Origin: Bdellovibrionota bacterium | GTDB taxonomy: Bacteria > Bdellovibrionota_C > UBA2361 | Assembly: GCA_044352465.1 (NCBI GenBank) | Contig: JBILDU010000029.1 | Span: 1 to 31,054 of the forward strand | Direction of reading: 5' to 3' | DNA length: 31,054 bases | The notes under the pieces: model-generated | Database searches by the model: none | What the model was told of the DNA's origin: nothing | What the model saw: only the letters and a program-made list of their open reading frames with translations | Position numbers and translations under genes: made by a program | Part shown: piece by piece, positions 4,902-18,245 of the stretch | How positions within the stretch are numbered: position 1 is the stretch's first letter | How the letters are laid out: each line of letters opens with the position of its first letter

Positions 4902-6836
4902 TTACAGATCCAGTTCAAGTCTATGGGCATTTTCTTGGATAAGCCGATACCGGTCGGCGGTCTCTTTGCCGAGGAGCTGCTCGAACATTTGTGTGACCTG
5001 CTCCTCTCCATCTACCCGAATTCGCAGGAGATTTCGCGTTTTGGGGTCGAGCGTTGTCTCCCAAAGGGTCGATGGATTCATCTCGCCCAGTCCTTTAAAC
5101 CGAGTGATATGTATTTTCGACCTGTCGCTCTTGCCTTTCAGGATGCGCTCCTTGTCCTCATCTGAGTAAGCCCACAGGAGCTCCTCTCTGCTCCCGGAGC
5201 CGATCCGAATTCGGTAGAGCGGGGACATGCCGATGTAGAGGTGTCCTGCGTCGACCAGCGGCCGCATAAAGCGGAAGAAGAAAGCCATTAAGAGGGAGCC
5301 GATATGCATTCCGTCCGCATCGGCGTCGGTAAGGATGATCACTTTGCCGTAGCGGAGCTTCTCGAGGCGGACTTTGTCGCCGATACCACATCCGAGAGCT
5401 GAGGAAAGGTCGAGGAGTTCGCGATTCTCTTTGAGTTTCGCCTCGCTTGCCGCGACTGAGTTTAATATCTTTCCCCGTAACGGAAGGACGGCTTGGGTCT
5501 TTCGATCCCGGCCCTGCTTGGCGCTGCCGCCCGCTGAATCACCCTCAACGATGAAAAGTTCAGATTTTTCGGGGCTCGTTGATGAGCAGTCCGCGAGTTT
5601 TCCCGGGAGGTTGAGGCGGTGGCTTATGCCGATCTTCCGCGAGACGCTCTCGCTGGCGGTGCGCGCCGCGGCGCGCGCCTTTGCCGCCATCATGATTCGC
5701 TCGACGATCGCTGCGGCGATGTTGGGCTTCGAGTTCAGCACGTTCTCATAGGTTCGGATAAGCCCCTCGACCGGTGCCGCGATCTCGGGATTGTTGAGTC
5801 GGTTTTTGGTCTGTCCTTGGAACTGAAGTTGGGCAACCGCGCCGGGGACGTTCACCGAGACGACCGCGAGAAGGCCTTCGCGGATATCCTCACTGACGAC
5901 CTTGACACCCCGCGGGACCAGATTGTGGACCGACATGTAGTTACGGAGCGCTTTGCCGAGCCCAGTTTTAAAACCTTCGTCGTGCGTGCCGCCTTCCGAA
6001 GTGTGGATACCGTTCACGTAGGAGAGGACTTTTTCAGTCGTCGATTCAGTCCAGCAAAAAGCCACCTCCACCCGTACCCCATTGGTGCGTTCCAGAGAGA
6101 ATGTCTCGCCAGCGATCGGCTTCAGTTGCTCTTGCTCAAGCAGCTTGCCCAGGTATGAGACGAGGCCGTCGGGGAAGCAGTACCGATTCGATGTACCTGC
6201 CCCTTCGTCCACGAAGGTTATGGCGAGGCCTTTATGGAGAAACGCCTTTTCTTGGATCGTCTTCTCAATCCGGGCAGCTTGGAACGCGATTGAGCGGAAG
6301 ATCTCGGTGTCCGGCTTAAAGAAGATCGTCGTGCCGTGGGCCTTCGTCTTGGCCCCCTTCATGAGTTTGGAGGTTGCTTTGCCACGCGAGAACGATTGGG
6401 TCCACTCGAAGCCATCTCGGCGCACGGTGGCGCGAAGGTCAGACGAGAGCGCGTTAACCACCGATGAGCCGACGCCGTGGAGACCACCCGCAGAGACGTA
6501 GTTGCGATCGGAGAATTTACCTCCTGAGTGGAGCGTTGTCAGGATGAGCTCGAGCGCTGACTTCTTAAACTTCGGGTGGGTATCGACCGGAATGCCTCGG
6601 CCGTTATCTTCGACGCTGACGCTCTCACCATCTTTGTGGAGGGTCACCGTGATCGAGTCGGCGTGGCCGTTCATCGCCTCGTCGACAGCGTTGTCGAGGA
6701 TCTCGTTGACGAGGTGGTGCAGCCCTTGGGGGCCCTCAGTGCCACCGATGTACATTCCCGGGCGCTTCCGCACCGGCTCAAGGCCTTCAAGAACCTCGAT
6801 ATCCTCGGCTGTGTACGATTTTGCTGACATGCCCAT
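4902..6836 (-). CDS. parE: Type IIA topoisomerase B subunit (topoisomerase IV ParE-like)
   Basis: GHKL motifs (EILDNAVDE, DNGRGIP, GGLHGVG) and Toprim motifs (EGDSAGGSAKQGR, PLRGKILN, TDADADG, RFKGLGEMN). At 644 aa it lacks the large gammaproteobacterial GyrB insertion. Its ATG overlaps the A-subunit stop (TAATG). The parE rather than gyrB call is inferred from the partner lacking a GyrA-box. Confidence 0.85.
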   Translation of the reverse strand: MGMSAKSYTAEDIEVLEGLEPVRKRPGMYIGGTEGPQGLHHLVNEILDNAVDEAMNGHADSITVTLHKDGESVSVEDNGRGIPVDTHPKFKKSALELILTTLHSGGKFSDRNYVSAGGLHGVGSSVVNALSSDLRATVRRDGFEWTQSFSRGKATSKLMKGAKTKAHGTTIFFKPDTEIFRSIAFQAARIEKTIQEKAFLHKGLAITFVDEGAGTSNRYCFPDGLVSYLGKLLEQEQLKPIAGETFSLERTNGVRVEVAFCWTESTTEKVLSYVNGIHTSEGGTHDEGFKTGLGKALRNYMSVHNLVPRGVKVVSEDIREGLLAVVSVNVPGAVAQLQFQGQTKNRLNNPEIAAPVEGLIRTYENVLNSKPNIAAAIVERIMMAAKARAAARTASESVSRKIGISHRLNLPGKLADCSSTSPEKSELFIVEGDSAGGSAKQGRDRKTQAVLPLRGKILNSVAASEAKLKENRELLDLSSALGCGIGDKVRLEKLRYGKVIILTDADADGMHIGSLLMAFFFRFMRPLVDAGHLYIGMSPLYRIRIGSGSREELLWAYSDEDKERILKGKSDRSKIHITRFKGLGEMNPSTLWETTLDPKTRNLLRIRVDGEEQVTQMFEQLLGKETADRYRLIQENAHRLELDL

Positions 6837-9097
6837 TAGCCTACCTTCTCCACAGAAACTATCTCACCCCGCGCGACCACCTTGTTGCCCTTCAGTGCGC
6901 GATGTCCCGAGCAAACCTCGCTCGAGGGGATCTCGGTCGTCTTTCCGTTGGTGAGCGTTATCTTTAATTTGGCTTGCCGTTGAAAGCTCACCGCACTGAC
7001 GAGTCGATCGTCGGAGCGGACGCCGATGAGGGCGACCCCCACTGCGGCGGTATCACGCTCCGGTACCTCCTTCGCCGAGATGATGAGGCCCGCAGCCTTC
7101 TCGGTGAAGAGTCCGATCTGCCCCTCGAGTCGGCACACCGCGGCAAGAAAGTCGCCGTCGCGGAGCTTCATGGCGCGCTTGCCGCTCCTCTTGAGGCTGT
7201 CGAGGCCTTCGATGATAAGCGCAAATCCGACCCCTTGCTTCGAGACGAGGAGCATCTTATGCCCCTCGCGGATTTCGTGGACGGGAAGGAGCGTAGCCTC
7301 GGCTTGCTTGGCCTTCACCTCGAAGCTTTCCACGATCGTTTCGCCGTCTTTGAACTTCAAAATCTTTTGTACCGGGTCGCCATAGCCGCTCGAGGAGGGG
7401 AAGTCAGCTACCTTCAAGGTGTACAGCGTCCCCAGGTTCGTAAAGAACGCCACCGAGTCGACCGTCGAAAGGGCATGGGCTCGTTTAATCGAGTCGCCCT
7501 CCCGTAGGCGAGTTGAGGCGAGTTCGTTCGTTTGGCGGATACGTTTAATCCAGCCGTCGTTCGTCACGATCGCGTAGACATCCTCGTGCACTACATAATC
7601 TTCGGCGTTAAACTCGATCTCGATATTTTCACGCACGAGCTTGCACCGTCGCTTGTCGCCGTAACGTTCGGCGATCGCTTCGAGATCTTTCTTCACGAGT
7701 TCGCGAATCTTCGCTGGGTTCTTTAAGATCCGATCGATCTCGTCGACCCGCTTTTGTTTTTCCTTAAGCTCCTCACGGATCTCCAAGATATTGGTGCGCG
7801 AGAGTTGGTAGATCTTCATGTCGACCACCGCGTACGCTTGAATCTCCGAGAGCTTGAAGCGAGCGCGGAGCTTCTCCGCCGAGTCGGCCCGACCCTCGCT
7901 CTTACGCACGATCTTGAGCGCCTCATCGAGCGCGTCGTAGATAATGACGAGTCCTTCGAGGATGTGAATTCGCTCGAGAAGCTTCTTCCGCTCATACGTG
8001 AGCTTCTTCCGGGTTACGTCGATACGGAAGTCGATAAAGTGCTGGAGGCACGATTTTAGGGGCAAAACCTCCGGTCGGAGGGAGCCGTTGGGTCCGGGGA
8101 CGAGCGCGGTGAAATTCACGTTGAAGGCGCTCTCAATCGGGGTGTTCTTGAATAGATACGCCATCGCGACGTCGGGATCGGCCCCACTGGCGAGCTCGAG
8201 CACGATGCGCACCTGATCGGTCGACTCGTCGCGCACGTCAGTGAGTTGCGGGACCTTGCGGTCGATGATGAGGCCAGCGATCTTCTCAACAAGTTGGGAT
8301 TTGTTGAGCGCGTAGGGGATCGAAGTGATTACGATCGCTCGTTTGCCCCGCGCCTGCTCTTCGACCCCCCACTCTCCGCGCATCCGAATCGCGCCGCGCC
8401 CCGTCTCGTAGATCTCGGTGATCTCTTTTTTGCTATTTAAAATAAGACAGCCGGTCGGGAAGTCGGGTCCTTTGATCGTTGCGGCGAGTTTCGCACACGC
8501 GAGCTCGGGGTCGTCCAAGAGCTCGGTGAGTGCTTTGATCGTGTCGGTCAGGTTGTGGGGTGGAATGCTCGTCGCCATACCCACGGCGATGCCGCTCGCC
8601 CCGTTAATGAGAAGGTTGGGAACTCGGCTTGGAAGAACTACCGGTTCGGCGGTTGTGCCGTCGAAATTGTCCCGAAAGTCGACCGTTTCCTGATCAATCT
8701 CTCCGATAACATCGATCGCAAGGTCACGTAGCTTCGCCTCGGTGTACCGATACGCTGCGGCGTTGTCCCCGTCGAGCGATCCGAAGTTGCCTTGGCCGTC
8801 CACAAGGGGGTAGCGGAGTGAGAAGTCTTGAGTCATCCGCACCATCGCCTCATAGCAGGCGATATCCCCGTGGGGGTGAAACCGCGCGAGCACTTCGCCC
8901 ACGACCGCTGCGGATTTGCGATGGCTACCGTTCGGGCGCAGGTTGAGGTTCTGCAGCATCGCGTAGAGGATGCGGCGCTGTACCGGCTTGAGCCCGTCGC
9001 GGACGTCGGGGAGGGCGCGACCTGACACCACGCTCAGCGCGTAGGTAAGGTAGCGATCGCGCGATTCTTGGGACAAGTTTGTGTCGATGACCGCCAT
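6836..9097 (-). CDS. parC: Type IIA topoisomerase A subunit (topoisomerase IV ParC-like)
   Basis: [38 protein letters not shown], catalytic AAAYRYTE and [14 protein letters not shown]. The beta-pinwheel CTD lacks a QxRGGKG GyrA-box. Start placed at ATG 9097 (MAVIDTNL) rather than TTG 9148. Confidence 0.85.
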
Positions 9098-9506
9098 AGA
9101 AAAGCCTGCGTAAAGTCCGGATAGCTCGGTTGAAATTTTTCGCCGCAAGGGGGTGCGGGGATGAAGGGAGATTACACAACGGACCCCGTTCCGTAAAGAA
9201 CTCGCCCGGAATGGTCTGAGTGTCGAGGCTCAAAAAAGTGCCGCAGCGGACGCTGCATAAACCTGCGGGGACAGCGACCCGCCGGTTGCAGCGAACCCAA
9301 TTTAACGTGCGGGGTTCCCCCGATGAGACGGAGCGTGACGAAGCCGTGGTGCTGTCCCTCTCGCCAGGGTGAGAAAACTTCGCGGCTGTCCCCGCGAGGC
9401 CTGAGCTAACGACCGCTAGCGCAGTGAGGCAGTATGCAACTCCGCGAAACGACACAACGCGGGTCGGTCCGCGCACATGGCGAGTTTCGGAGTTTTCGGA
9501 AGAGTC

Positions 9507-10784
9507 CTACGGTAAGTCGGCGATTTTCGGCCCACCCGCAGCATGGAGGCGCCCGAAGAGCTTGCCCCCTTTCTTTTCCACCGCGTCGTAGCGGAAAGGT
9601 ACGAGATTACAGGCGATTTTACGCAGGATATCGCGGGTGCGTTGGTCGGTCATCTCATAAAAAGTCGATCCTCCCTGACTCCACCGCTGTGCTGCGGCGG
9701 AGAACGGTACGGCATATAGATTTGCATCGGGGGGGAAGAGTTTCGCCCGAGCGATCGTCGCAGCGGCCTCACTCGTAGTCAGATTTCTCCCCGTGTTCCC
9801 ATTTAGGATCACCGACCACCGCTGTAGGTCGAATTCGCGCAGATCTCCCGATTCGCTACGGAGTCGGGTGAGGTTGGCGAGCGAGCGCTCGAGCGAGATG
9901 AAATCGTCGTCGACGATCAGCACCACATGACTGCACCGCCGTAGTGCGGCGAGCGTTGCAATACCCCACGATCGCCCGAGATCGAAAACAACAACGTTAA
10001 ACTCACGTCCCAACGCTGCGAGGCTCGAGGTGATGAACTCGGTCGCAGCGGGGGCGTCATCGATCACGTTCGCTTTAAAATGAAAGGAATCATTGTACAG
10101 TTCGGGTTGGGGGACAACGACGAAGCGGCCGTCGAAACCGAAGACCGGTGCGACGAGCTCGTTGAGTCGGGTGGGCTCGACCTCGCCGTGTCGGAGACAG
10201 TGCGAGCTCATGGTCCGTTGCCGCGGAGTCGCGCGGGCCCATTGGGTGAGGTGTGGGTTGACATCGTCGAGATCAACGAGTGCCACACTGAGGCCGTGAC
10301 GCGCCCAACAACCGCCGAGCGCCGCCGCGATCGTTGAGGCTCCAACTCCGCCTTTCAGTTGACAGACCCCGATCACGGAATCGCGCAACGGTTCGGGGGC
10401 TGTAAGTGTCGGCTCGGTCGCGGCGTTCAGGAGAAACCCGGTCAGTTGAGCGACGTCGTGAACAGCGAAAACCTGTACCGCCAGCGAGCGGCGTAGCGCG
10501 ACGGCACGGTGCGCATACTCCTCGGCGGAGAGGGTGAGTGCAACTGAGCCCAGAGGGTAAGCGACCCGGAGGCGATCGACGATCTCGTCGGTCTCGGCGT
10601 TGATATCTGGCCCGAGGACGCAGCAGAATACGTCGTCCCAGTCGATCGAATCGATCTCAGCACGGGTAAATTCGCGTAACGTGATCTCACCGATGTCGGC
10701 TTGTCGAGCGGCTTCAAGGAGCCGACCACGCAACATCGCGCGACCTTCTGGGGAGCGTTCGTAGATAAGGATACGCTTTGTCAT
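9507..10784 (-). CDS. CpaE/TadZ-like ParA/MinD-family protein with a degenerate N-terminal receiver-like domain
   Basis: Deviant Walker A KGGVGASTIA (Ala at the Lys position, as in CpaE/TadZ), VALVDLD and VVFDLG. The N-terminus KRILIYE... is receiver-like but lacks the acidic pocket. ATGA overlap with the upstream response regulator. Confidence 0.75.
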   Translation of the reverse strand: MTKRILIYERSPEGRAMLRGRLLEAARQADIGEITLREFTRAEIDSIDWDDVFCCVLGPDINAETDEIVDRLRVAYPLGSVALTLSAEEYAHRAVALRRSLAVQVFAVHDVAQLTGFLLNAATEPTLTAPEPLRDSVIGVCQLKGGVGASTIAAALGGCWARHGLSVALVDLDDVNPHLTQWARATPRQRTMSSHCLRHGEVEPTRLNELVAPVFGFDGRFVVVPQPELYNDSFHFKANVIDDAPAATEFITSSLAALGREFNVVVFDLGRSWGIATLAALRRCSHVVLIVDDDFISLERSLANLTRLRSESGDLREFDLQRWSVILNGNTGRNLTTSEAAATIARAKLFPPDANLYAVPFSAAAQRWSQGGSTFYEMTDQRTRDILRKIACNLVPFRYDAVEKKGGKLFGRLHAAGGPKIADLP

Positions 10785-11191
10785 CGCTGTGGCTCCCGTT
10801 CGCGGTGTGACGCACGATCGACCAATGCCGTAATCGTCTGGAGCAGTTCCTCGTAAGCAAACGGTTTCCGCAGATAGCCGTCAGCTCCTTGTAGTTCGGC
10901 CCACTCTGCGGCGTCTTCGTCGTCTTGCGCGCTCACAATCACCACCGAGATAGCCGGGCTGTGCCGCTTAATCTCACGACACAGCTGAAAACCGTCGGCG
11001 CGAGGGCTCCCCGCTGGAGTGTTGAGGATGAGGTCGAGCAGCACGATGTCCGGCTCGAATGTGGCGACAAGTTGCTGGACCGGCACGCTCGCATCGGTGC
11101 ATTTGTGCGGCTGATGCCCGGCTTCAGCGATAAGTTCAGCGATGAGCGCGGCTTGGGCCGGAGAGTCTTCGACGATTAAGATCTTTGCCAT
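10781..11191 (-). CDS. Single-domain (CheY-like) response regulator
   Basis: KILIVEDS, phospho-acceptor in DIVLLDL, DGFQLCREIK, VIVSA and GADGYLRKPF. No output domain. Confidence 0.92.
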   Translation of the reverse strand: MAKILIVEDSPAQAALIAELIAEAGHQPHKCTDASVPVQQLVATFEPDIVLLDLILNTPAGSPRADGFQLCREIKRHSPAISVVIVSAQDDEDAAEWAELQGADGYLRKPFAYEELLQTITALVDRASHREREPQR

Positions 11192-12675
11192 GCGCCCTCC
11201 CCCGCGGTGCTCTGAGTCCTGTCGTGCGGGGATATCCCTCGCGGGATGATGAGGCGACGAAGTGGTGTTTCAATCGCCGGGGTATCCCACTGTCGCCGGC
11301 CATCGATCGTTCCCTGAAAAGTCAAAAGATTCGGCATCGCCGCGATCGAGTTGTCAGCGAAGATCACCTCGCGAACCCGTTCGACGCACGGTGTGCCCCG
11401 TGCAAGGCCCATCTCGATCACAAGGATAGGAGTGCGCGGGAGCGCCTGGTGCCGTTCGAGGAGGTCGACCGTCGCGGTCGCATCGGGGGTGTTGAAGACA
11501 CCAATAATACCGCGAAAGCCCCGTTCCACCGCAGCACGAAATCCAGCTATCCCCGGACCGCCGACGTCACCGAAGGTAAGACGTCGAGCCCCGCGACACC
11601 CAGCGATCTCAACAAGGCTGGGATATTGCTCCACGGGAGAGACGAACTTTTCAAGGTTGGTGGCTGGCGGAAAGATCTCCGCTACCGTCTCTATTGAGGC
11701 GACTCGCTCGAGCGAACCGATCGCTCCGCTCAGCGCGGTGGCGAACGTGGTGCGGCCTGAACCGGGCGCACCCACCACAAGGATGTGCGCGGCTCCGCTG
11801 TGGGCGGCCTCAGCAAGCCACGCGCCGAATTTAACCGGCAACGTCTTCGCGCGGATGAGCTCATACATCGTGACGTGGGCGATCCGCGGTATGCGAATGG
11901 CGAGTCGGGGCTCGCTCCCATCAACGAGCGGCTGCGCCACCACGTCGATGCGTGAGTGCCACCGGTCTGAAAGCGTCGCGGTGAGGTGCGCGGGAATCGA
12001 GGCGGCGCCGCAGCTTGAGACGAGGCGGGTGAGAAAACGTCGATACAGCTCCGGAGTGCGGAAACGAAACGGGGTGTGGAGCGCTGCACTTTTGCGGCGA
12101 CAAACCACCGTATCGAATCGGTCGACCCAGATGTCGGTCACGGCGGGATCCTCGAAGAGTGGGCTCAGTGGTCCGTAACCCCAAAGAAATTCGGCGAGTT
12201 CCGCGACGCCTGCATTGAGATCGTCGGCGGTGAGCCGCATCTCCCGGGTTAGGTTGTGCGCGGCCGTTTGAACCGCCGTGCGGAGCGGCGCGAGCTCGCC
12301 GGGGGGCGGCGCGTTATGCGGTGAGCGCTCGTCGAGGAGCTCTAAAGCTTTCGGAACAAGGGCGTTGAGCACCCCGGAGTTGCGCGGTGGTGTGGCGAGC
12401 CACGGCGGATTGGGGTCAGTGGGAGGTGTCTTCGCGGTATTTGGCGGCACCGCTGCTGAGGGGATTATCTCACCCGGTGGATTCGTCGAGGGATTGGAGG
12501 ATTCCCCGAGGGGCACCACCGGCATGTTCTCGAGCTTCAACGGAGCTTCGACGATCACCGTGGGATTTTTGAAAGCCTCGAATTGGGCAGAGTCGGTGCG
12601 CACGACCTTCTCGGTGGCGGTTTGGGCGCGCCGACCCCCCTTTTTACTCTGTAGTCTTTCAAGCAGTCCCGACAT
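11176..12675 (-). CDS. TadA/CpaF-family secretion ATPase paralog with degenerate catalytic motifs
   Basis: Family signature GYGPLSPLFEDPAVTDIWVD and PRLAIR. Walker A reads GAPGSGRTT, the Asp box SIETVAEI and Walker B RLTFGDVGG, and the His box has no His. Pro-rich N-terminal linker. GAGGGGAG RBS. Confidence 0.8.
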   Translation of the reverse strand: MSGLLERLQSKKGGRRAQTATEKVVRTDSAQFEAFKNPTVIVEAPLKLENMPVVPLGESSNPSTNPPGEIIPSAAVPPNTAKTPPTDPNPPWLATPPRNSGVLNALVPKALELLDERSPHNAPPPGELAPLRTAVQTAAHNLTREMRLTADDLNAGVAELAEFLWGYGPLSPLFEDPAVTDIWVDRFDTVVCRRKSAALHTPFRFRTPELYRRFLTRLVSSCGAASIPAHLTATLSDRWHSRIDVVAQPLVDGSEPRLAIRIPRIAHVTMYELIRAKTLPVKFGAWLAEAAHSGAAHILVVGAPGSGRTTFATALSGAIGSLERVASIETVAEIFPPATNLEKFVSPVEQYPSLVEIAGCRGARRLTFGDVGGPGIAGFRAAVERGFRGIIGVFNTPDATATVDLLERHQALPRTPILVIEMGLARGTPCVERVREVIFADNSIAAMPNLLTFQGTIDGRRQWDTPAIETPLRRLIIPRGISPHDRTQSTAGEGAWQRS

Positions 12676-12768
12676 CGTCTCCCCTCATGCACCCGATTGC
12701 GCGGAGCTTGCGTAGGTATCCTTTCGCAGGCTTCCCTTTGGCTGCGCTTTGGACCTGCACAGATAGTA

Positions 12769-12796
12769 CCATCGGCAGATTTGACGAGCAGCTTCA
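12769..12796 (-). promoter_or_regulatory. Sigma28 (FliA/WhiG)-like promoter upstream of the tadA-like operon
   Basis: The minus strand reads TGAAG-N15-GCCGATGG, against the consensus TAAAG-N14-GCCGATAA. Confidence 0.4.
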
Positions 12797-12946
12797 GCCC
12801 TTTAGGTGAGCTAAGCCGGGTAGCGCGATGAATGATGGGGGTAAGCTGCCTAGAGCCGGGGCTACTAATTTTTCGGTCACACGCTCGCGGGGTGTTAGGA
12901 GATACCGAGGGCGGGCACGATGAGTAAGTGACTAAAAGGTATGGAG

Positions 12947-13129
12947 TTATTTCGAGTCCGCCGGTGGGGCGGTTTCGGGTTGAGCCAGGGGAGCCACACT
13001 AATAGTTTCGGGGGGTACCTGGGTGAGGTGCGTGAGGAGGGGAAAAGCGAGCGAGCAGACTAAGGCGGCGAGCAGCCCCAGAACCACGAGTTCCAGAGAG
13101 CTCCCTGCGGCTTTCGATTCGTATCGCAT
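12947..13129 (-). CDS. Small Flp/type IV pilin-like membrane peptide
   Basis: 60 aa: short charged leader MRYESKAA, then GSSLEL and a hydrophobic helix (VVLGLLAALVCSLAFPLL). Strong AAGGAG RBS 9 nt upstream. Lies upstream of the tadA-like gene. Confidence 0.55.
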   Translation of the reverse strand: MRYESKAAGSSLELVVLGLLAALVCSLAFPLLTHLTQVPPETISVAPLAQPETAPPADSK

Positions 13130-13263
13130 GACTAACTACTCCTTGGTACTTGCGACGATTCTATGAGAAGCCATTTCGAGTGTGACGCGACCTTCCGATC
13201 CCCGAATTGGGATGCTGGCGGGGCGCGTTCGATTCGGCCGTTCGTTGAAAATTCACCATCCTG

Positions 13264-14584
13264 TTAAAAACCACCTTCTCTCCCGGTAGCGTTCTTTTGC
13301 AGATGTAAGAGAGCGATCTCTCGCTCGAGCCAGCGGGTTCGTTCGCGGACCTGGGCGGATGATATCGTCCCGGGTGTGGTATCGATACGGGGGGCAGTTG
13401 CGGAATCGTCGCCGCTTAGCGCGGTTTTGCCATAATCATCGCGAAGCTGGTTATACGTCGTCTCAAGCTCGGCGAGACGAACCAGTTCAAGACCCAGTTC
13501 TCGGAGCGCGACCACCCGGCACCACCGCAAAGTCGACGCGCTCCGGAGCGCGGGGCGGGGGAAGTCCACTGAGGAAAGTGGGTACTGCAATAACGAGGAT
13601 AAGCGCTGCAAACGCCCCGACGACAGCTCCACCACCGGCGATGCGGGAGAGGGAGAAGCGGCGGGGAGTCAGTGGTGAATGGTTTCGAGGGCGTTTGAGA
13701 GGGGTCGTGCTCCAATCGGAATATTCGCGGCGCTTATCCGCTACGGTGTTGGGCCCCACACCCTCGAATCGCTCTAGCTCCCGGCCAACGTCGGCCGCCG
13801 ACTGATACCGTTGGGCAAGATTCGGATTCATCGCTCGTTCAATGATCTGCGCCAGTTGGGGGGGGCAGTGCGGAGCGACCTTCACGAGCGGCGGGGGATG
13901 ACTATTTTTCTTTCGTGCCGCTAAAAGCTCACGTGAGTCGTCAGGGAACGGCGACACCCCCGAGATCATCTCGTAGCCCAGCACTCCGAGGGCGAAGATA
14001 TCGCCGCGGTGGTCGGACTCCCCCGTCTCGAGGTACTCCGGGGGGATATATTTCGGGGTGCCCACCATTCCGCCGGCTTGAGTGAGTGTTTGCGATCCAC
14101 TAACCCGGGCCACTCCGAAGTCGGCGAGTTTTACCTGGTCGTCGGCAGTAAGAAGGATGTTCTCCGGCTTAAGATCGCGGTGAATGATCCCCGCTTCGTG
14201 AATAGCCTCTAGCGCTGCGGCGATCTGGCGGAGATAGCGGACCGCTGAGTCCGCCGGTATCGGTTCTCGTTTGATTCGGGTGAGGAGGTTGCCTCCGCTG
14301 ACGTACTCCATGGCGTACGCCTGTAGGTTGTTACCATCGAAGTACTCGTACGCTTTGACAATATTGGGGTGATTAATACGGTAGGCGGCGACGATCTCGT
14401 TGCGAAAGCGCTCCCGGGCCGTGGGGGTTTCGATGACCCCTGGAGGTATCACCTTGAGCGCGACATAGAATTCCGGATTCGTAACGTCCTGGGCGAGATA
14501 CACCTCTCCCATCCCGCCACTACCGATGCGGCGGACGATGGTGTACCGGTCGTTAAACTGCGTTCCCGCTCTAAGATTTGCCAC
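13264..14584 (-). CDS. Membrane-anchored Hanks-type Ser/Thr protein kinase, apparently frameshifted near 13516 (the uninterrupted ORF is 13487-14584)
   Basis: IGSGGMGEVY, VALKVI, HRDLKPEN, DFG and GTPKYIPPE, plus TM helix AVVGAFAALILVIAV. After VVP the protein-like helical sequence VVALRELGLELVRLAELETTYNQLRDDY continues in another frame to TAA at 13264. Confidence 0.9.
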
Positions 14585-14788
14585 TGCGGTTAGATCGTCG
14601 ACCGGCTAGACGAAAATCTAAACAGATTGTTGAGTCGTTGTTGCCCTGCTAACCGACTGATCTTATTGAGTCGCTGCGCCGCCTCGTCGCTACGCCGGTT
14701 GGCTGGGGTCGGTTGAACGGCGCGGTAGTTTGAGCCATCCTGATACCAAGGCAGAATCGTCCGCACGATATGAGGTCTCTAAAGCGGT

Positions 14789-15202
14789 ATGGTCGGGAAG
14801 ATATCCAAAGAAAAACACGGTGCGCTCAATCGTTTACTCGAGGATGAGTACGCCTTAGTGCACCTTGACCCAGGGGTAGACGGAGTGGTGTTACCCCGGC
14901 ACCTCTCGGCTGGTCCGACCGTAACGCTCAAGGTGAGCCGTCTTTTTCGGGGCGCTCTTGTGGTCGAGGATGAGCGTTTTGTCGCGGATCTACTCTTTGG
15001 GGGAGATTATTTTACCTGTGTGGTGCCTTTCGGGGCGATTTGGGGGCTGACGAGTGCGACCGGAAGTAACGTCATGTGGCCAGAGGATACCCCAGAGGAG
15101 GTTCGGGAAAAGCTCGTCCAACCTCAACCAGCTCCGGCGAAAGTGGCGAGCGGTGGAGAGCCGACCGAGAAGAAACGGGGGCATCTCCGGCGGGTGAAGT
15201 AG
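14789..15202 (+). CDS. SspB-like ClpXP adaptor (stringent starvation protein B family)
   Basis: VHLDPGVDGVVLP...LLFGGDYFTCVVPFGAIW core, a flexible linker and C-terminal RGHLRRVK, which resembles the ClpX-binding LRVVK tail of SspB. Confidence 0.75.
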   Translation: MVGKISKEKHGALNRLLEDEYALVHLDPGVDGVVLPRHLSAGPTVTLKVSRLFRGALVVEDERFVADLLFGGDYFTCVVPFGAIWGLTSATGSNVMWPEDTPEEVREKLVQPQPAPAKVASGGEPTEKKRGHLRRVK

Positions 15203-16370: not shown

Positions 16371-17608
16371 TTACGTATCCGACCGACTGAGGAGGATTTT
16401 TTCGATCCCGGCGATTTCGGTGAGGTGTTCGAATGCGCGGGTTGCGGTTGAGATGCGGTCGCCTTGAGAGACTTCAACCTCGCCCCGGCGATTTAAGAAG
16501 TCGGGAGCCTGCGGAAAGGGGTGATCTAAAGCTGCTCCGATAAGCTCGACGAATCCTTCGTCGAGTCCCGGCGGTGGCGCCGTTTGGGGGGATTTTTTAA
16601 CGGCGCGTTTCAGTTCAAGGATTCTTCCAAGGCCTAGACGATAGAGCGGCTGAAGTCCGATCTTTCGGGCAAGGATAGTGCTATCCGTCTTGGGGTGGCG
16701 TTCGAATGCGAGTTCAATGCCTATGTTTAAGGCCCCCTTTACACGCTCGATGAGGGCTGTCATTGCGCCTTCGTCGCCAAAGTCGACGCCCCAGTGCACC
16801 ACCGCGCTGTTCGCGATAAGCGTGATCTCCATCTCGGCGCTTTCCCGGTCAGGGTGAGCATCGAGAAATGAGGTGAGCGGCTGGAGTGCTAAAGAGTCGT
16901 AAACGATCGGTTCGATGACCGCGATATCGGCGATCGCTTTTGGCGAGGCGGTCTCGAGCATCTGTGAAAAATCAGCGCTGGTGAGCGGCGCGTTTATCTT
17001 GAACGCCCAGGCGCGGTCCGGGACACCTTCCGCTGAGAGTCTCTTGGTCCGCTCTTGAAACGATTCCTCCTCCAAGACCGCTTCGGTCGACACGTTCGGA
17101 ATGTTTCAAAAACGAGGGCGAGGAGACGGGCGAGGAGGAAGTGCTTATCGGCGCTCAGTGTGTGAATGCCGAGCCAGGTGGAGCCTTTGTCGGGGGTATG
17201 AAAGCCGTTGCCAGGAGGGTTCTCGGTCGGATCTTCAAAGATCCGGACCTCAACGTATCGGGCGATGAGTAGGCCGATAAACTTGAGGTCAACAAAGCGG
17301 AGGAGCTTCTGGAGGAGTTTAAGTCCGTTGTCGTCGTCCGACAGGCTGAGCCACTCCCAAAAACGCTCCTCGCAAAAGCGATCGCCTTCCCAGCAGTCAA
17401 AGTCGAGCATGAGGCGACATTGCTCGAGCGTCGCAATCTCGATGAGATCGGATGAGGCGACGAGCCCGTTCTGTTTGACCGCCATGAACAGGCTCTGTGC
17501 CGGTATGGTGCGAATAAATTGCTCCGGCATCTCCGCCGCAAAAATGGTGCGCGCCAATGAACGGCTCGAGAATCCACTGTGGCGTTTGGGGACGGACGGG
17601 AGCGACAA
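16371..17608 (-). pseudogene. DUF6178-like protein split by a frameshift or deletion at about 17100
   Basis: The N-part starts at TTG 17608 after GGAGG (LDFDCWEGDRFCEERFWEWL...LLALVFET). The C-part is in another frame (IPNVSTEAVLEEESFQERTKRLSAEGVPD...LYRLG) and ends at 16371. The span is 1238 nt, not a multiple of 3. The family is assigned from remembered motif resemblance. Confidence 0.6.
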
Positions 17609-17672
17609 TCTGCCTCCGGAGGTACGGTGAGTGCTTCGTGTGACGGGGGCGACGAGCGCCCCCGCGATATCG

Positions 17673-18245
17673 TTACTTCGCTGGGGCGAGAACGATATGG
17701 ATCTGTCGGCCGTAGCCAGGCGAGCGCTCATCGACCGTGGCCACATCGGCGAGCCGCTCGATGATCTGCTTGAATTTTTCCAAGCCCAGTTCAACGTAGG
17801 CAACTTCACGGCCTTTGAAGCGCATACTGAATTTGACTTTGTCGCCTTCGGCGAGGAAGTCCCGCGCTTGCTTTAGCTTCGTCTCCAGGTCCCCCACGTC
17901 GGTGCGGTAGCGAATCCGGAGCTCCTTGATCGTGCTTTCCGAGCGTTTCTTCTTCGCCTCGGCCTCTTTCTTTTGTTCCTTATACTTGAACTTGCCGTAG
18001 TCCATGAGGCGACATACCGGAGGCTTGGCATTCGGCGAAACCTCAACGAGATCGAGCTCATCAGACTCGGCGCGTAGGAGTGCGTCCCGGATAGACATGA
18101 TGCCGAGTTGATCCCCGTTGTCGGCGATGACCCGAACTTCCTTGGCGATAATTCTGTCGTTGATGCGATGGGCGTCGGGTGGGGGGGCTTTGCGAGCGAA
18201 GCGGGGGTTACCGCGGCCGCCGCCGGAGTTAAAGAATGTATTCAA
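17673..18245 (-). CDS. infC: Translation initiation factor IF-3
   Basis: RINDRI..EVRVI, LDLVEVSPNAKPPVCRLMDYGKFKY and GDKVKFSMRFKGRE. TTG start 8 nt after AAGGAG. Confidence 0.97.
   Translation of the reverse strand: MNTFFNSGGGRGNPRFARKAPPPDAHRINDRIIAKEVRVIADNGDQLGIMSIRDALLRAESDELDLVEVSPNAKPPVCRLMDYGKFKYKEQKKEAEAKKKRSESTIKELRIRYRTDVGDLETKLKQARDFLAEGDKVKFSMRFKGREVAYVELGLEKFKQIIERLADVATVDERSPGYGRQIHIVLAPAK

Follow-up and report, generated by a model that had tools for sequence, protein, structure and literature searches.

A reduced Tad-type gene cluster with a catalytically degenerate CpaF/TadA protein in a Bdellovibrionota genome

The stretch of DNA analyzed here, referred to as the window, comprises 31,054 nucleotides (nt) of a Bdellovibrionota bacterium (assembly GCA_044352465.1, contig JBILDU010000029.1, positions 1 to 31,054). 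It contains a group of genes related to those of Tad pili, at the center of which lies the gene for a 499-amino acid (aa) homolog of the motor ATPase CpaF/TadA with altered catalytic motifs, called pseudo-CpaF here (Table 1). This gene is followed without a gap by the gene for a CheY-like receiver and then by that for a TadZ/CpaE-type protein. The list of open reading frames (ORFs) and the translations confirmed the intact 499-codon frame and the overlaps of 16 nt and ATGA that a first-pass annotation had read from the letters: in the former, W-Q-R-S-stop of pseudo-CpaF is read across the ATG GCA AAG ATC of the receiver gene, while the latter joins the receiver gene to the TadZ-like gene. A pilin-like gene lies 272 bp upstream of the pseudo-CpaF gene. 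No tadB, tadC, cpaB, secretin or A24 prepilin peptidase gene was detected in the window by Pfam analysis of 24 further ORFs and by tblastn, in agreement with the first-pass annotation.

Table 1. Positions of genes and sequence features in the window
Feature	Position	Strand	Description
Pseudo-CpaF/TadA gene	11176..12675	(-)	499 aa
Walker A, GAPGSGRTT	11746..11772	(-)	Arg308 in place of the P-loop Lys (CpaF K287)
Asp box, IETVAE	11677..11694	(-)	Asp replaced by Thr; both Glu (E329, E333) retained
Central Loop deletion site	11617..11643	(-)	8 residues; platform-contact loop of CpaF
Walker B, TFGDVGG	11557..11577	(-)	Asp370 for the catalytic Glu (CpaF E357); Gly372 for the conserved Arg (R359)
His box, GIIGVFNT	11488..11511	(-)	Asn395 for His (CpaF H382)
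Receiver gene	10781..11191	(-)	136 aa
TadZ/CpaE-type gene	9507..10784	(-)	425 aa
Pilin-like ORF	12947..13129	(-)	60 aa; tblastn counterparts and leader/helix sequence
Hanks-type Ser/Thr kinase gene	13487..14584	(-)	First gene of the cluster; Pfam Pkinase, 173.9 bits
parC (topoisomerase IV subunit A)	6836..9148	(-)	Pfam DNA_topoisoIV; downstream synteny anchor, outside the module

Both its fold and its ancestry mark the 499-aa protein as a CpaF/TadA. A profile built from the protein and its 12 closest relatives matches the Caulobacter CpaF PDB chains with an E value of 2e-46 (HMMER), and the closest Foldseek matches of its AlphaFold2 (AF2) model are CpaF structures (8rjf_A, E 4.2e-24; 8rkd and 9e24, to 1.5e-22), followed by FlaI and archaeal GspE. 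The model has a mean predicted local distance difference test (pLDDT) score of 78.7, with values >85 over roughly residues 100 to 470. In it, a conserved MSGLLERL helix precedes a disordered N-terminal segment (residues ~1-86), which leads into an N-terminal domain and a RecA-like C-terminal domain. Scores against the family models fall under their cut-offs, with 16.9 bits for Pfam T2SSE (cut-off 24.9) and 72.5 bits for NCBIfam TIGR03819 (TadA) over residues 145-337 (E 3.5e-20; threshold 373).

Residues were mapped onto Caulobacter CpaF using the HMMER profile alignment and further sequence alignments, with motif strings taken from the translation of the exact coordinates. Residue roles follow the CpaF study (PMC11300603): K287 is the P-loop lysine, E357 the catalytic residue, R359 a conserved arginine, H382 the His-box histidine, and R347 acts in trans. 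A contact with the platform proteins CpaG/CpaH is predicted for the Central Loop of CpaF (E331, G332, S333, G334), which is required for function (PMC11300603). The alignment placed the altered motifs of the window protein at the expected positions of a CpaF/TadA fold that is without the catalytic Lys, Glu and His. With these residues lost and the Central Loop deleted, both the chemistry and the platform-docking surface are gone. The position of the trans-acting R347 is occupied by C360, next to a retained R361. The first-pass annotation had described every catalytic motif as altered; this stands for all four motifs, but several nucleotide-contacting residues survive, namely the invariant Asp-box residues E329 and E333 (CpaF E312) and R242 of the N-terminal domain (CpaF R223). 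The glycines and threonines of the P-loop are retained as well.

The same substitutions recur in relatives. A search of 5.8 billion proteins returned 53 relatives of the 499-aa protein, among which P0001 (97% identity), P0002 to P0004 (54-55%) and P0005 and P0006 (41-42%) all carry GSGRTT and G-D and have no His-box His; the copy in a congener of the window's genome (G090) is 60% identical and reads GTGRTT. The combination of G(A/P)PG(S/T)GRTT, G-D and a missing His is therefore common to 8/8 members of the window's clade down to ~40% identity, which argues against strain-specific decay. In the clade alignment G302, P304, G305, G307, R308, T309, T310, G369 and D370 are invariant (7/7 sequences). 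All eight Lys-to-Arg proteins share an 8-residue deletion of the Central Loop, and the Loop 8 region is 2 residues shorter in six of them (exceptions P0005 and P0006). Canonical orthologs, defined as the 15 that have tadB/tadC downstream or are truncated by a contig end, display GxxGSGKT, IEDVPEIF, GE(I/V)R and the His in every case (15/15), and the Central Loop G-x-G (QG[EKN]G) is present in all 15 as well as in both TadA paralogs of the window's own genome. The remaining members of the window's family have a degenerate or shortened Central Loop, and a second tier among the relatives (P0010, P0012; genomes G087, G088, G089) retains the Lys, whereas the His is gone and, in most of them, so is the catalytic Glu. 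In a quick maximum likelihood tree, with support given as the Shimodaira-Hasegawa-like approximate likelihood ratio test (SH-aLRT) only and the partial sequence L048 excluded, the Lys-to-Arg sequences group in a single clade (SH-aLRT 99; stem length 0.98) and the own-genome canonical TadA paralogs a separate one (SH-aLRT 99), while monophyly of the whole window family is weakly supported (SH-aLRT 64).

One canonical-family ortholog in another locus (L063, G064:C51, 6197..9505 (-)) has kept the Lys and Glu, with Cys in place of the His-box His, a degenerate Central Loop and diverged tadB/tadC homologs downstream; it may show this degenerative trend at an early point. Two Pfam-negative ORFs between TadA and the receiver there proved to be diverged TadB/C homologs (tblastn, 24-31% identity), so that a change in the His box is not by itself a sign of platform loss.

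The gene order identifies the origin of the module, which is a reduced ortholog of a full Tad-type cluster; tadB, tadC, cpaB and two genes for secreted coiled-coil proteins have been deleted in the window's family. All genomes compared are draft metagenome-assembled genomes (MAGs). Relatives 30-35% identical to the 499-aa protein are encoded at ten loci of such genomes (Bdellovibrionota, Oligoflexia, Bdellovibrionales and others), in a cluster with the conserved order Ser/Thr kinase, pilin-like, cpaB, tadA, tadB, tadC, receiver, tadZ and parC. At locus L009 the Ser/Thr kinase gene comes first, followed by those for two secreted coiled-coil proteins, a pilin-like protein of 54 aa, CpaB (with a SAF domain), TadA (T2SSE, 122 bits), the T2SSF proteins TadB and TadC, another small pilin-like product, the receiver, a ParA-like protein and ParC. 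The second pilin-like ORF (11467..11694 (+) of L009, 75 aa, ...RGSVTLVEFVV...), between tadC and the receiver gene, has no counterpart in the window. Upstream of TadA, tblastn detected the kinase in 8/10 loci and a pilin-like ORF in 9/10. In six of the ten, the receiver and ParA-like genes follow TadA as a pair at a distance of 2.2-6.6 kb; in one, the receiver gene follows while the ParA-like gene lies upstream in inverted orientation, and the other three are cut by contig ends. The same layout is found at 14 further loci of the order, with TadB and/or TadC in 13 and diverged homologs in the fourteenth (L063), and with a kinase ortholog upstream in most of them. The TadA-to-receiver spacing in related genomes ranges from 1.6 to 6.6 kb, and parC directly follows the TadZ-like gene at L052, L053, L055, L061 and L062.

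In the window, kinase, pilin-like, TadA-like, receiver, TadZ-like and parC genes stand in the same order and on the same strand as in the full cluster, and TadA adjoins the receiver in 5/5 genomes of the window's family (G000, the window's own, and G090, G088, G089 and G087). Synteny of the TadA-like gene with the receiver and TadZ-like genes is thus conserved in related genomes. Two parts of the original interpretation had to be revised in light of these comparisons: the three genes are not a stand-alone module, since the kinase and pilin-like genes also belong to the conserved cluster whose ortholog the module is, and pseudo-CpaF is not a catalytically dead paralog recruited to a new module but the cluster's own TadA, left after the deletion of tadB, tadC and cpaB. 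In the window's genome, which is 94.9% complete, every T2SSF gene stands beside another ATPase (C16, C56, C47 and C159); tblastn with TadB and TadC of L009 found no relocated ortholog there, only 24-26%-identical paralogs, and CpaB and the two secreted coiled-coil proteins of L009 had no tblastn match. Across the orthologs, catalytic loss tracks platform loss. Two scans of metagenome contigs, with the clade alignment and with P0003 as queries, did not find any relative.

We estimated ratios of nonsynonymous to synonymous rates (dN/dS) between the window and G090 by the Nei-Gojobori method (NG86), at dS values of 1.3-3.1; for more distant canonical pairs NG86 dS was undefined. Pseudo-CpaF as a whole gave 0.17 (dS ~1.8), with 0.12 for its N-terminal extension, 0.21 for the N-terminal domain, 0.15 for the C-terminal domain and 0.21 for the C-terminal tail. 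Ratios for the other proteins were 0.06-0.07 (receiver), 0.04 (TadZ-like), 0.10 (kinase) and 0.30 (pilin-like). The ratio for pseudo-CpaF is not near 1, in line with the first-pass view of a maintained gene. Its frame is intact in eight sequences at 40-97% identity, with no stop or frameshift, and the 16-nt overlap with the receiver gene is also present in G090. Because the losses in loop and motifs are shared, the frame is intact in these eight sequences and dN/dS lies well under 1, the data point to a selected pseudo-ATPase.

The proteins encoded next to pseudo-CpaF retain the hallmarks of their families. The receiver is a CheY-like single domain (Pfam Response_reg, 72.5 bits; cut-off 30.2) in which 40 columns are invariant across 15 sequences, including E8, D9, D53, S87 and K109, so that the acidic pocket, phospho-Asp, Ser and Lys noted at first pass are kept by 15/15 orthologs. 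The TadZ-like protein combines an atypical receiver-like N-terminal domain with a ParA/MinD-like domain (Pfam AAA_31, CbiA). Its AF2 model (pLDDT 82.4) has as top Foldseek match 3fkq, across both domains (408 columns, E 7.5e-12), an E. rectale protein used as TadZ (PMC10499894). The sequence KGGVGAS at residues 144-150 matches the Walker-A-like TadZ consensus K/RGGXGXS/T (bioRxiv 10.64898/2026.07.08.737194); G145, G146, V147 and G148 are invariant (15/15) and K144 is present in 14/15. The protein scores 41.6 bits on NCBIfam TIGR03815, under the threshold of 154. CpaE carries a C-terminal amphipathic membrane-targeting helix (PMC13170226); the TadZ-like protein ends in KLFGRLHAA and its orthologs in sequences like KLIKKVQSLV, and the model is unstructured there (pLDDT ~30). 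A complex prediction of pseudo-CpaF residues 88-485 with the TadZ-like protein and the receiver scored 0.46, equal to the control in which the TadZ-like protein was replaced (0.46), and gives no evidence either way.

Relative to the congener, the kinase gene of the window is frameshifted close to 13503-13517: the G090 protein aligns in frame -1 (14584-13517) over residues 1-352 and in frame -2 (13503-13306) over residues 364-432, the C-terminal part being the ORF 13264..13635 (-) in the other frame. Either an assembly error or a genuine truncation that splits off the C-terminal coiled-coil part may account for the break.

We compared the module with described systems. The bifunctional motor CpaF/TadA of the Caulobacter crescentus Tad (type IVc) pili has the same fold, domain order and disordered N-terminus as the window protein, which differs in the Lys-to-Arg change, the Glu-to-Asp and Arg-to-Gly changes of Walker B, the His-to-Asn change, the deleted Central Loop and the lack of tadB/tadC. 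The downstream protein shares with TadZ/CpaE the atypical-receiver and ParA/MinD architecture and the K/RGGXGXS/T motif; however, its motor partner is catalytically degenerate and there is no pilus platform, unlike in canonical systems. A phosphorylatable single-domain receiver lies directly upstream of the TadZ-like gene in the window and in its relatives, and does not figure among the named tad components in the accessible parts of the Tad literature. In Caulobacter, six CpaE dimers were fitted in situ as a ring around the CpaF hexamer, CpaE contacts the base of CpaF in the piliated state, and adjacent CpaE receiver-like domains were proposed to link the dimers (PMC13170226). In Bdellovibrio bacteriovorus a TadZ-TadA fusion occurs, the TadZ part of which binds the polarity hub RomR, and there are extra tadA paralogs, tadA2 and tadA3, for which the accessible text gives no motif analysis (bioRxiv 10.64898/2026.07.08.737194). 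The nearest functional precedent is PilB of Myxococcus xanthus, where an ATPase-deficient protein still signals to exopolysaccharide production without pili (PMC5544727), so that a pilus ATPase signals apart from hydrolysis and assembly. PilB is, however, a type IVa assembly ATPase and an active motor in the wild type, whereas the window protein lost its catalytic residues naturally and its machine is gone. Full-text literature searches found no description of a naturally degenerate TadA/CpaF or of a pilus-ATPase pseudo-enzyme, and the Tad-derived cytoplasmic module with a pseudo-CpaF appears from its sequence to be a variant not described before.

We speculate, with a probability of roughly 60%, that pseudo-CpaF is a former motor that now acts as a non-hydrolyzing signaling or positioning unit together with TadZ, the receiver and the kinase, after loss of the Tad membrane parts. 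The protein itself would probably partner the TadZ-like protein and the receiver, either as a nucleotide-binding unit or as a scaffold. The comparisons show that the inner-membrane and periplasmic parts were deleted while the motor ATPase stayed, which then lost its P-loop Lys, catalytic Glu and neighboring Arg, His-box His and platform loop; the fold, the frame, the strictly conserved glycine-rich P-loop, the Asp-box glutamates and the N-terminal helix were preserved under purifying selection. Pseudo-CpaF would no longer drive the polymerization of pilin and would be a non-hydrolyzing, possibly nucleotide-binding protein, ringed or held at the membrane by the TadZ-like protein. By analogy with Caulobacter and B. 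bacteriovorus, it would be expected to stay a partner of TadZ, because CpaE rings CpaF in the one and TadZ is fused to TadA in the other. Phosphorylation of the receiver, together with the Ser/Thr kinase, might set the state of the assembly, the kinase perhaps acting on the Ser/Thr/Pro-rich disordered N-terminus, and the free receiver could act by receiver-to-receiver contacts. It is the conserved MSGLLERL helix and the altered but invariant P-loop that most call for a functional explanation.

Several observations weigh against this proposal. Pseudo-CpaF evolves faster than its neighbors: identity to G090 is 60% for the TadA-like protein, compared with 74% (kinase) and 86% (TadZ-like protein), making it the fastest of the three large proteins, and dN(TadA)/dN(TadZ) is 3.46. 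In canonical pairs the latter ratio is 0.68, 0.69, 0.73 and 0.89 (four pairs) and 1.45 and 2.31 (two pairs from another family), so the contrast is only partial because these last two are already high. The relaxation is genuine, yet less clear-cut than the identities imply. At an equal dS of ~1.8, which is near saturation, dN/dS of the pseudo-CpaF gene is about four times that of canonical TadA (0.172 vs 0.044); the ratios of the kinase and the receiver are higher as well in the window/G090 pair. Other members of the family, G089 and the G036 lineage, stand on very long branches, resembling ongoing decay. The Cys at the position of trans-acting R347 makes even oligomer-dependent nucleotide sensing uncertain. 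Finally, adjacency to a receiver gene in P0001 to P0006 is an inference from their shared C-terminal W-x-x-S (W-Q/L/P-R/K/Q-S).

The faster rate, together with the long stem of the clade, the fourfold ratio and the extreme branches of G089 and G036, would also suit a slowly decaying relic, in which the ATPase gene became useless once tadB/tadC were lost and is drifting to loss, with only the receiver and the TadZ-like protein functional. The cluster is moreover patchy, with a TadZ-like ortholog in 26/91 genomes of the order, and has been destroyed in two of them. Even so, we consider a relic quite unlikely: dN/dS stays at 0.15-0.21 (0.12 in the N-terminal extension) throughout the protein, the eight sequences contain neither a stop nor a frameshift, the coupling to the receiver gene is retained in G090, and the altered P-loop and G-D are invariant in the clade, although a functionless pocket should drift. 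In these sequence comparisons, constraint on the gene appears weakened about fourfold but is clearly present. The two destroyed clusters belong to another family (L072, G026:C112, 9076-12187; L073, G027:C68, 787-3357) and are reduced to the kinase, a C-terminal fragment of CpaB, a TadZ-like fragment without its N-terminal domain and parC. The deletion spans from mid-cpaB to inside the TadZ-like gene, removing tadA, tadB, tadC and the receiver, and the TadZ-like fragment of G026 has an in-frame stop (TAA). This remnant is what true decay of the cluster looks like, unlike the window's locus.

The canonical tad clusters that had been sought elsewhere in the genome were found on C47 and C159. These two complete clusters (C47:941-7388 and C159:8564-15511) each encode an Flp pilin, TadZ, CpaB, TadA and TadB/C; an FlhA-like gene follows the cluster on C47, and at C119:9191-11611 a third Flp gene adjoins two PilT-sized T2SSE ATPases. 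Given two such clusters in the genome and the preserved CpaF fold, pseudo-CpaF could in principle be, along the lines of the dominant-negative or hetero-hexamer partner suggested by the first-pass annotation, a modifier of other Tad motors, a dead subunit that joins or competes with the TadA hexamers of C47/C159 and so tunes or blocks those pili. We regard this as unlikely. Pseudo-CpaF has just 25-30% identity to the C47/C159 paralogs (partial tblastn alignments, 168-286 residues) and falls in a separate clade, each paralogous cluster has its own TadZ, and Cys occupies the trans-acting Arg position. Deletion of the Central Loop, the platform-contact loop, argues against docking on the platform of another machine, while mixed hexamers remain compatible with it.

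A further alternative concerns the pilin-like protein, which has a short charged leader ending in Gly, the sequence SSLELVV, a hydrophobic helix of ~22 residues and a Pro-rich tail. Its site in the window, AAG/SSLELVV, has Glu at +4 and no Tyr, and thus differs from the Flp motif G/xxxxEY, although its size and hydrophobic helix fit; the orthologs read KG/SIELIVLGLLAALIVVLAIP (KG/SIELIV type). Upstream of the gene lie an AAGGAG Shine-Dalgarno sequence and a promoter-like site (13186-13158). Pseudo-CpaF might be a still-active, unusual ATPase whose Walker A Arg and Walker B Asp allow slow hydrolysis and which assembles this protein on a borrowed platform. In favor of this reading, charge is preserved at both substituted positions, the protein retains R242, the P-loop glycines and the glutamates of the Asp box, and the pilin-like gene has been kept with a good ribosome-binding site. 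We nevertheless find such activity very unlikely, as the protein lacks the Central Loop, the His of the His box and the Arg that follows the catalytic Glu, the E357A change abolishes the function of CpaF (PMC11300603), the genome has no orphan platform gene, and the pilin-like protein, with its Pro-rich tail, departs from the three other Flp genes of the genome, which have the canonical G/xTLxEY motif.

The proposed non-hydrolyzing role bears on how such proteins are viewed. Secretion and pilus ATPases are usually seen as motors; if a naturally dead member is under selection together with its positioning ATPase and phospho-regulators, it would imply that the cytoplasmic TadA-TadZ assembly has a job of its own, for example in signaling, polarity or scaffolding. 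Within the family, a natural series of grades runs from the full machine through loss of the platform with the Lys kept to Lys-to-Arg with loop deletion, and it separates the CpaF surfaces for catalysis and platform contact from those for partner binding. Tad machines are essential in Bdellovibrio prey attack (bioRxiv 10.64898/2026.07.08.737194), and their remodeling in related lineages therefore bears on changes of lifestyle.

We compared the clade profile with 1.84 billion cluster representatives and obtained 7569 matches at E <=0.001, 52 of them at E <=1e-30. Only P0002, P0005, P0006 and the fragment P0078 represent the Lys-to-Arg, loop-deleted clade, and Arg at the P-loop Lys was also seen outside it, in P0072, P0081 and P0091. 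Among the best 150 of the 7569 matches (4 rows dropped for gaps), 34 had the N-terminal motif MxGLLxxLQ, recognized by a regular expression, and all three columns filled; Lys, Glu and His occur together in only 6 of these 34, vs 87 of the 112 without the motif, in a comparison where the query profile is itself degenerate, clustering at 50% over-counts fast lineages and the MAFFT columns were unchecked by hand. Catalytic degeneration thus appears to be recurrent in this TadA subfamily, as judged from aligned residues. Because of this recurrence it is conceivable, though doubtful, that the MxGLLxxLQ Tad motors were repeatedly turned into non-hydrolyzing hexameric signaling or positioning proteins that need no pilus and work with the ParA-like ATPase TadZ, a Ser/Thr kinase and a CheY-like receiver; if true, this would be a natural class of pseudo-enzymes inside the PilT/VirB11 superfamily. 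Many MxGLLxxLQ members among representatives P0054 to P0102 have a non-canonical Walker B or His box.

The module is surrounded by housekeeping genes (transketolase, parE, parC, infC, cysS, dapF), GC content is even across the window (0.53-0.63), and Rfam gave no match across 9000-15000. In the 359-bp gap between the stop of the TadZ-like gene and parC, a consensus scan detected 3 terminator-like hairpins (9242..9474 (-)), a count not above that in shuffled sequences, and the ORF 8925..9476 (183 aa) within this gap is probably spurious. Divergent to the kinase gene, 14789..15202 (+) encodes a 137-aa protein without a Pfam match, which is found in the same place at 20 related loci (35-72% identity) and is the upstream boundary marker of the cluster; by eye it looks like the SspB-type adaptors, to which it presumably bears a resemblance. 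A DUF6178 protein is split over the overlapping ORFs 16371..17093 and 16994..17809 (-), which match profile positions 190-398 and 20-173, respectively; the gene is probably frameshifted or a pseudogene.

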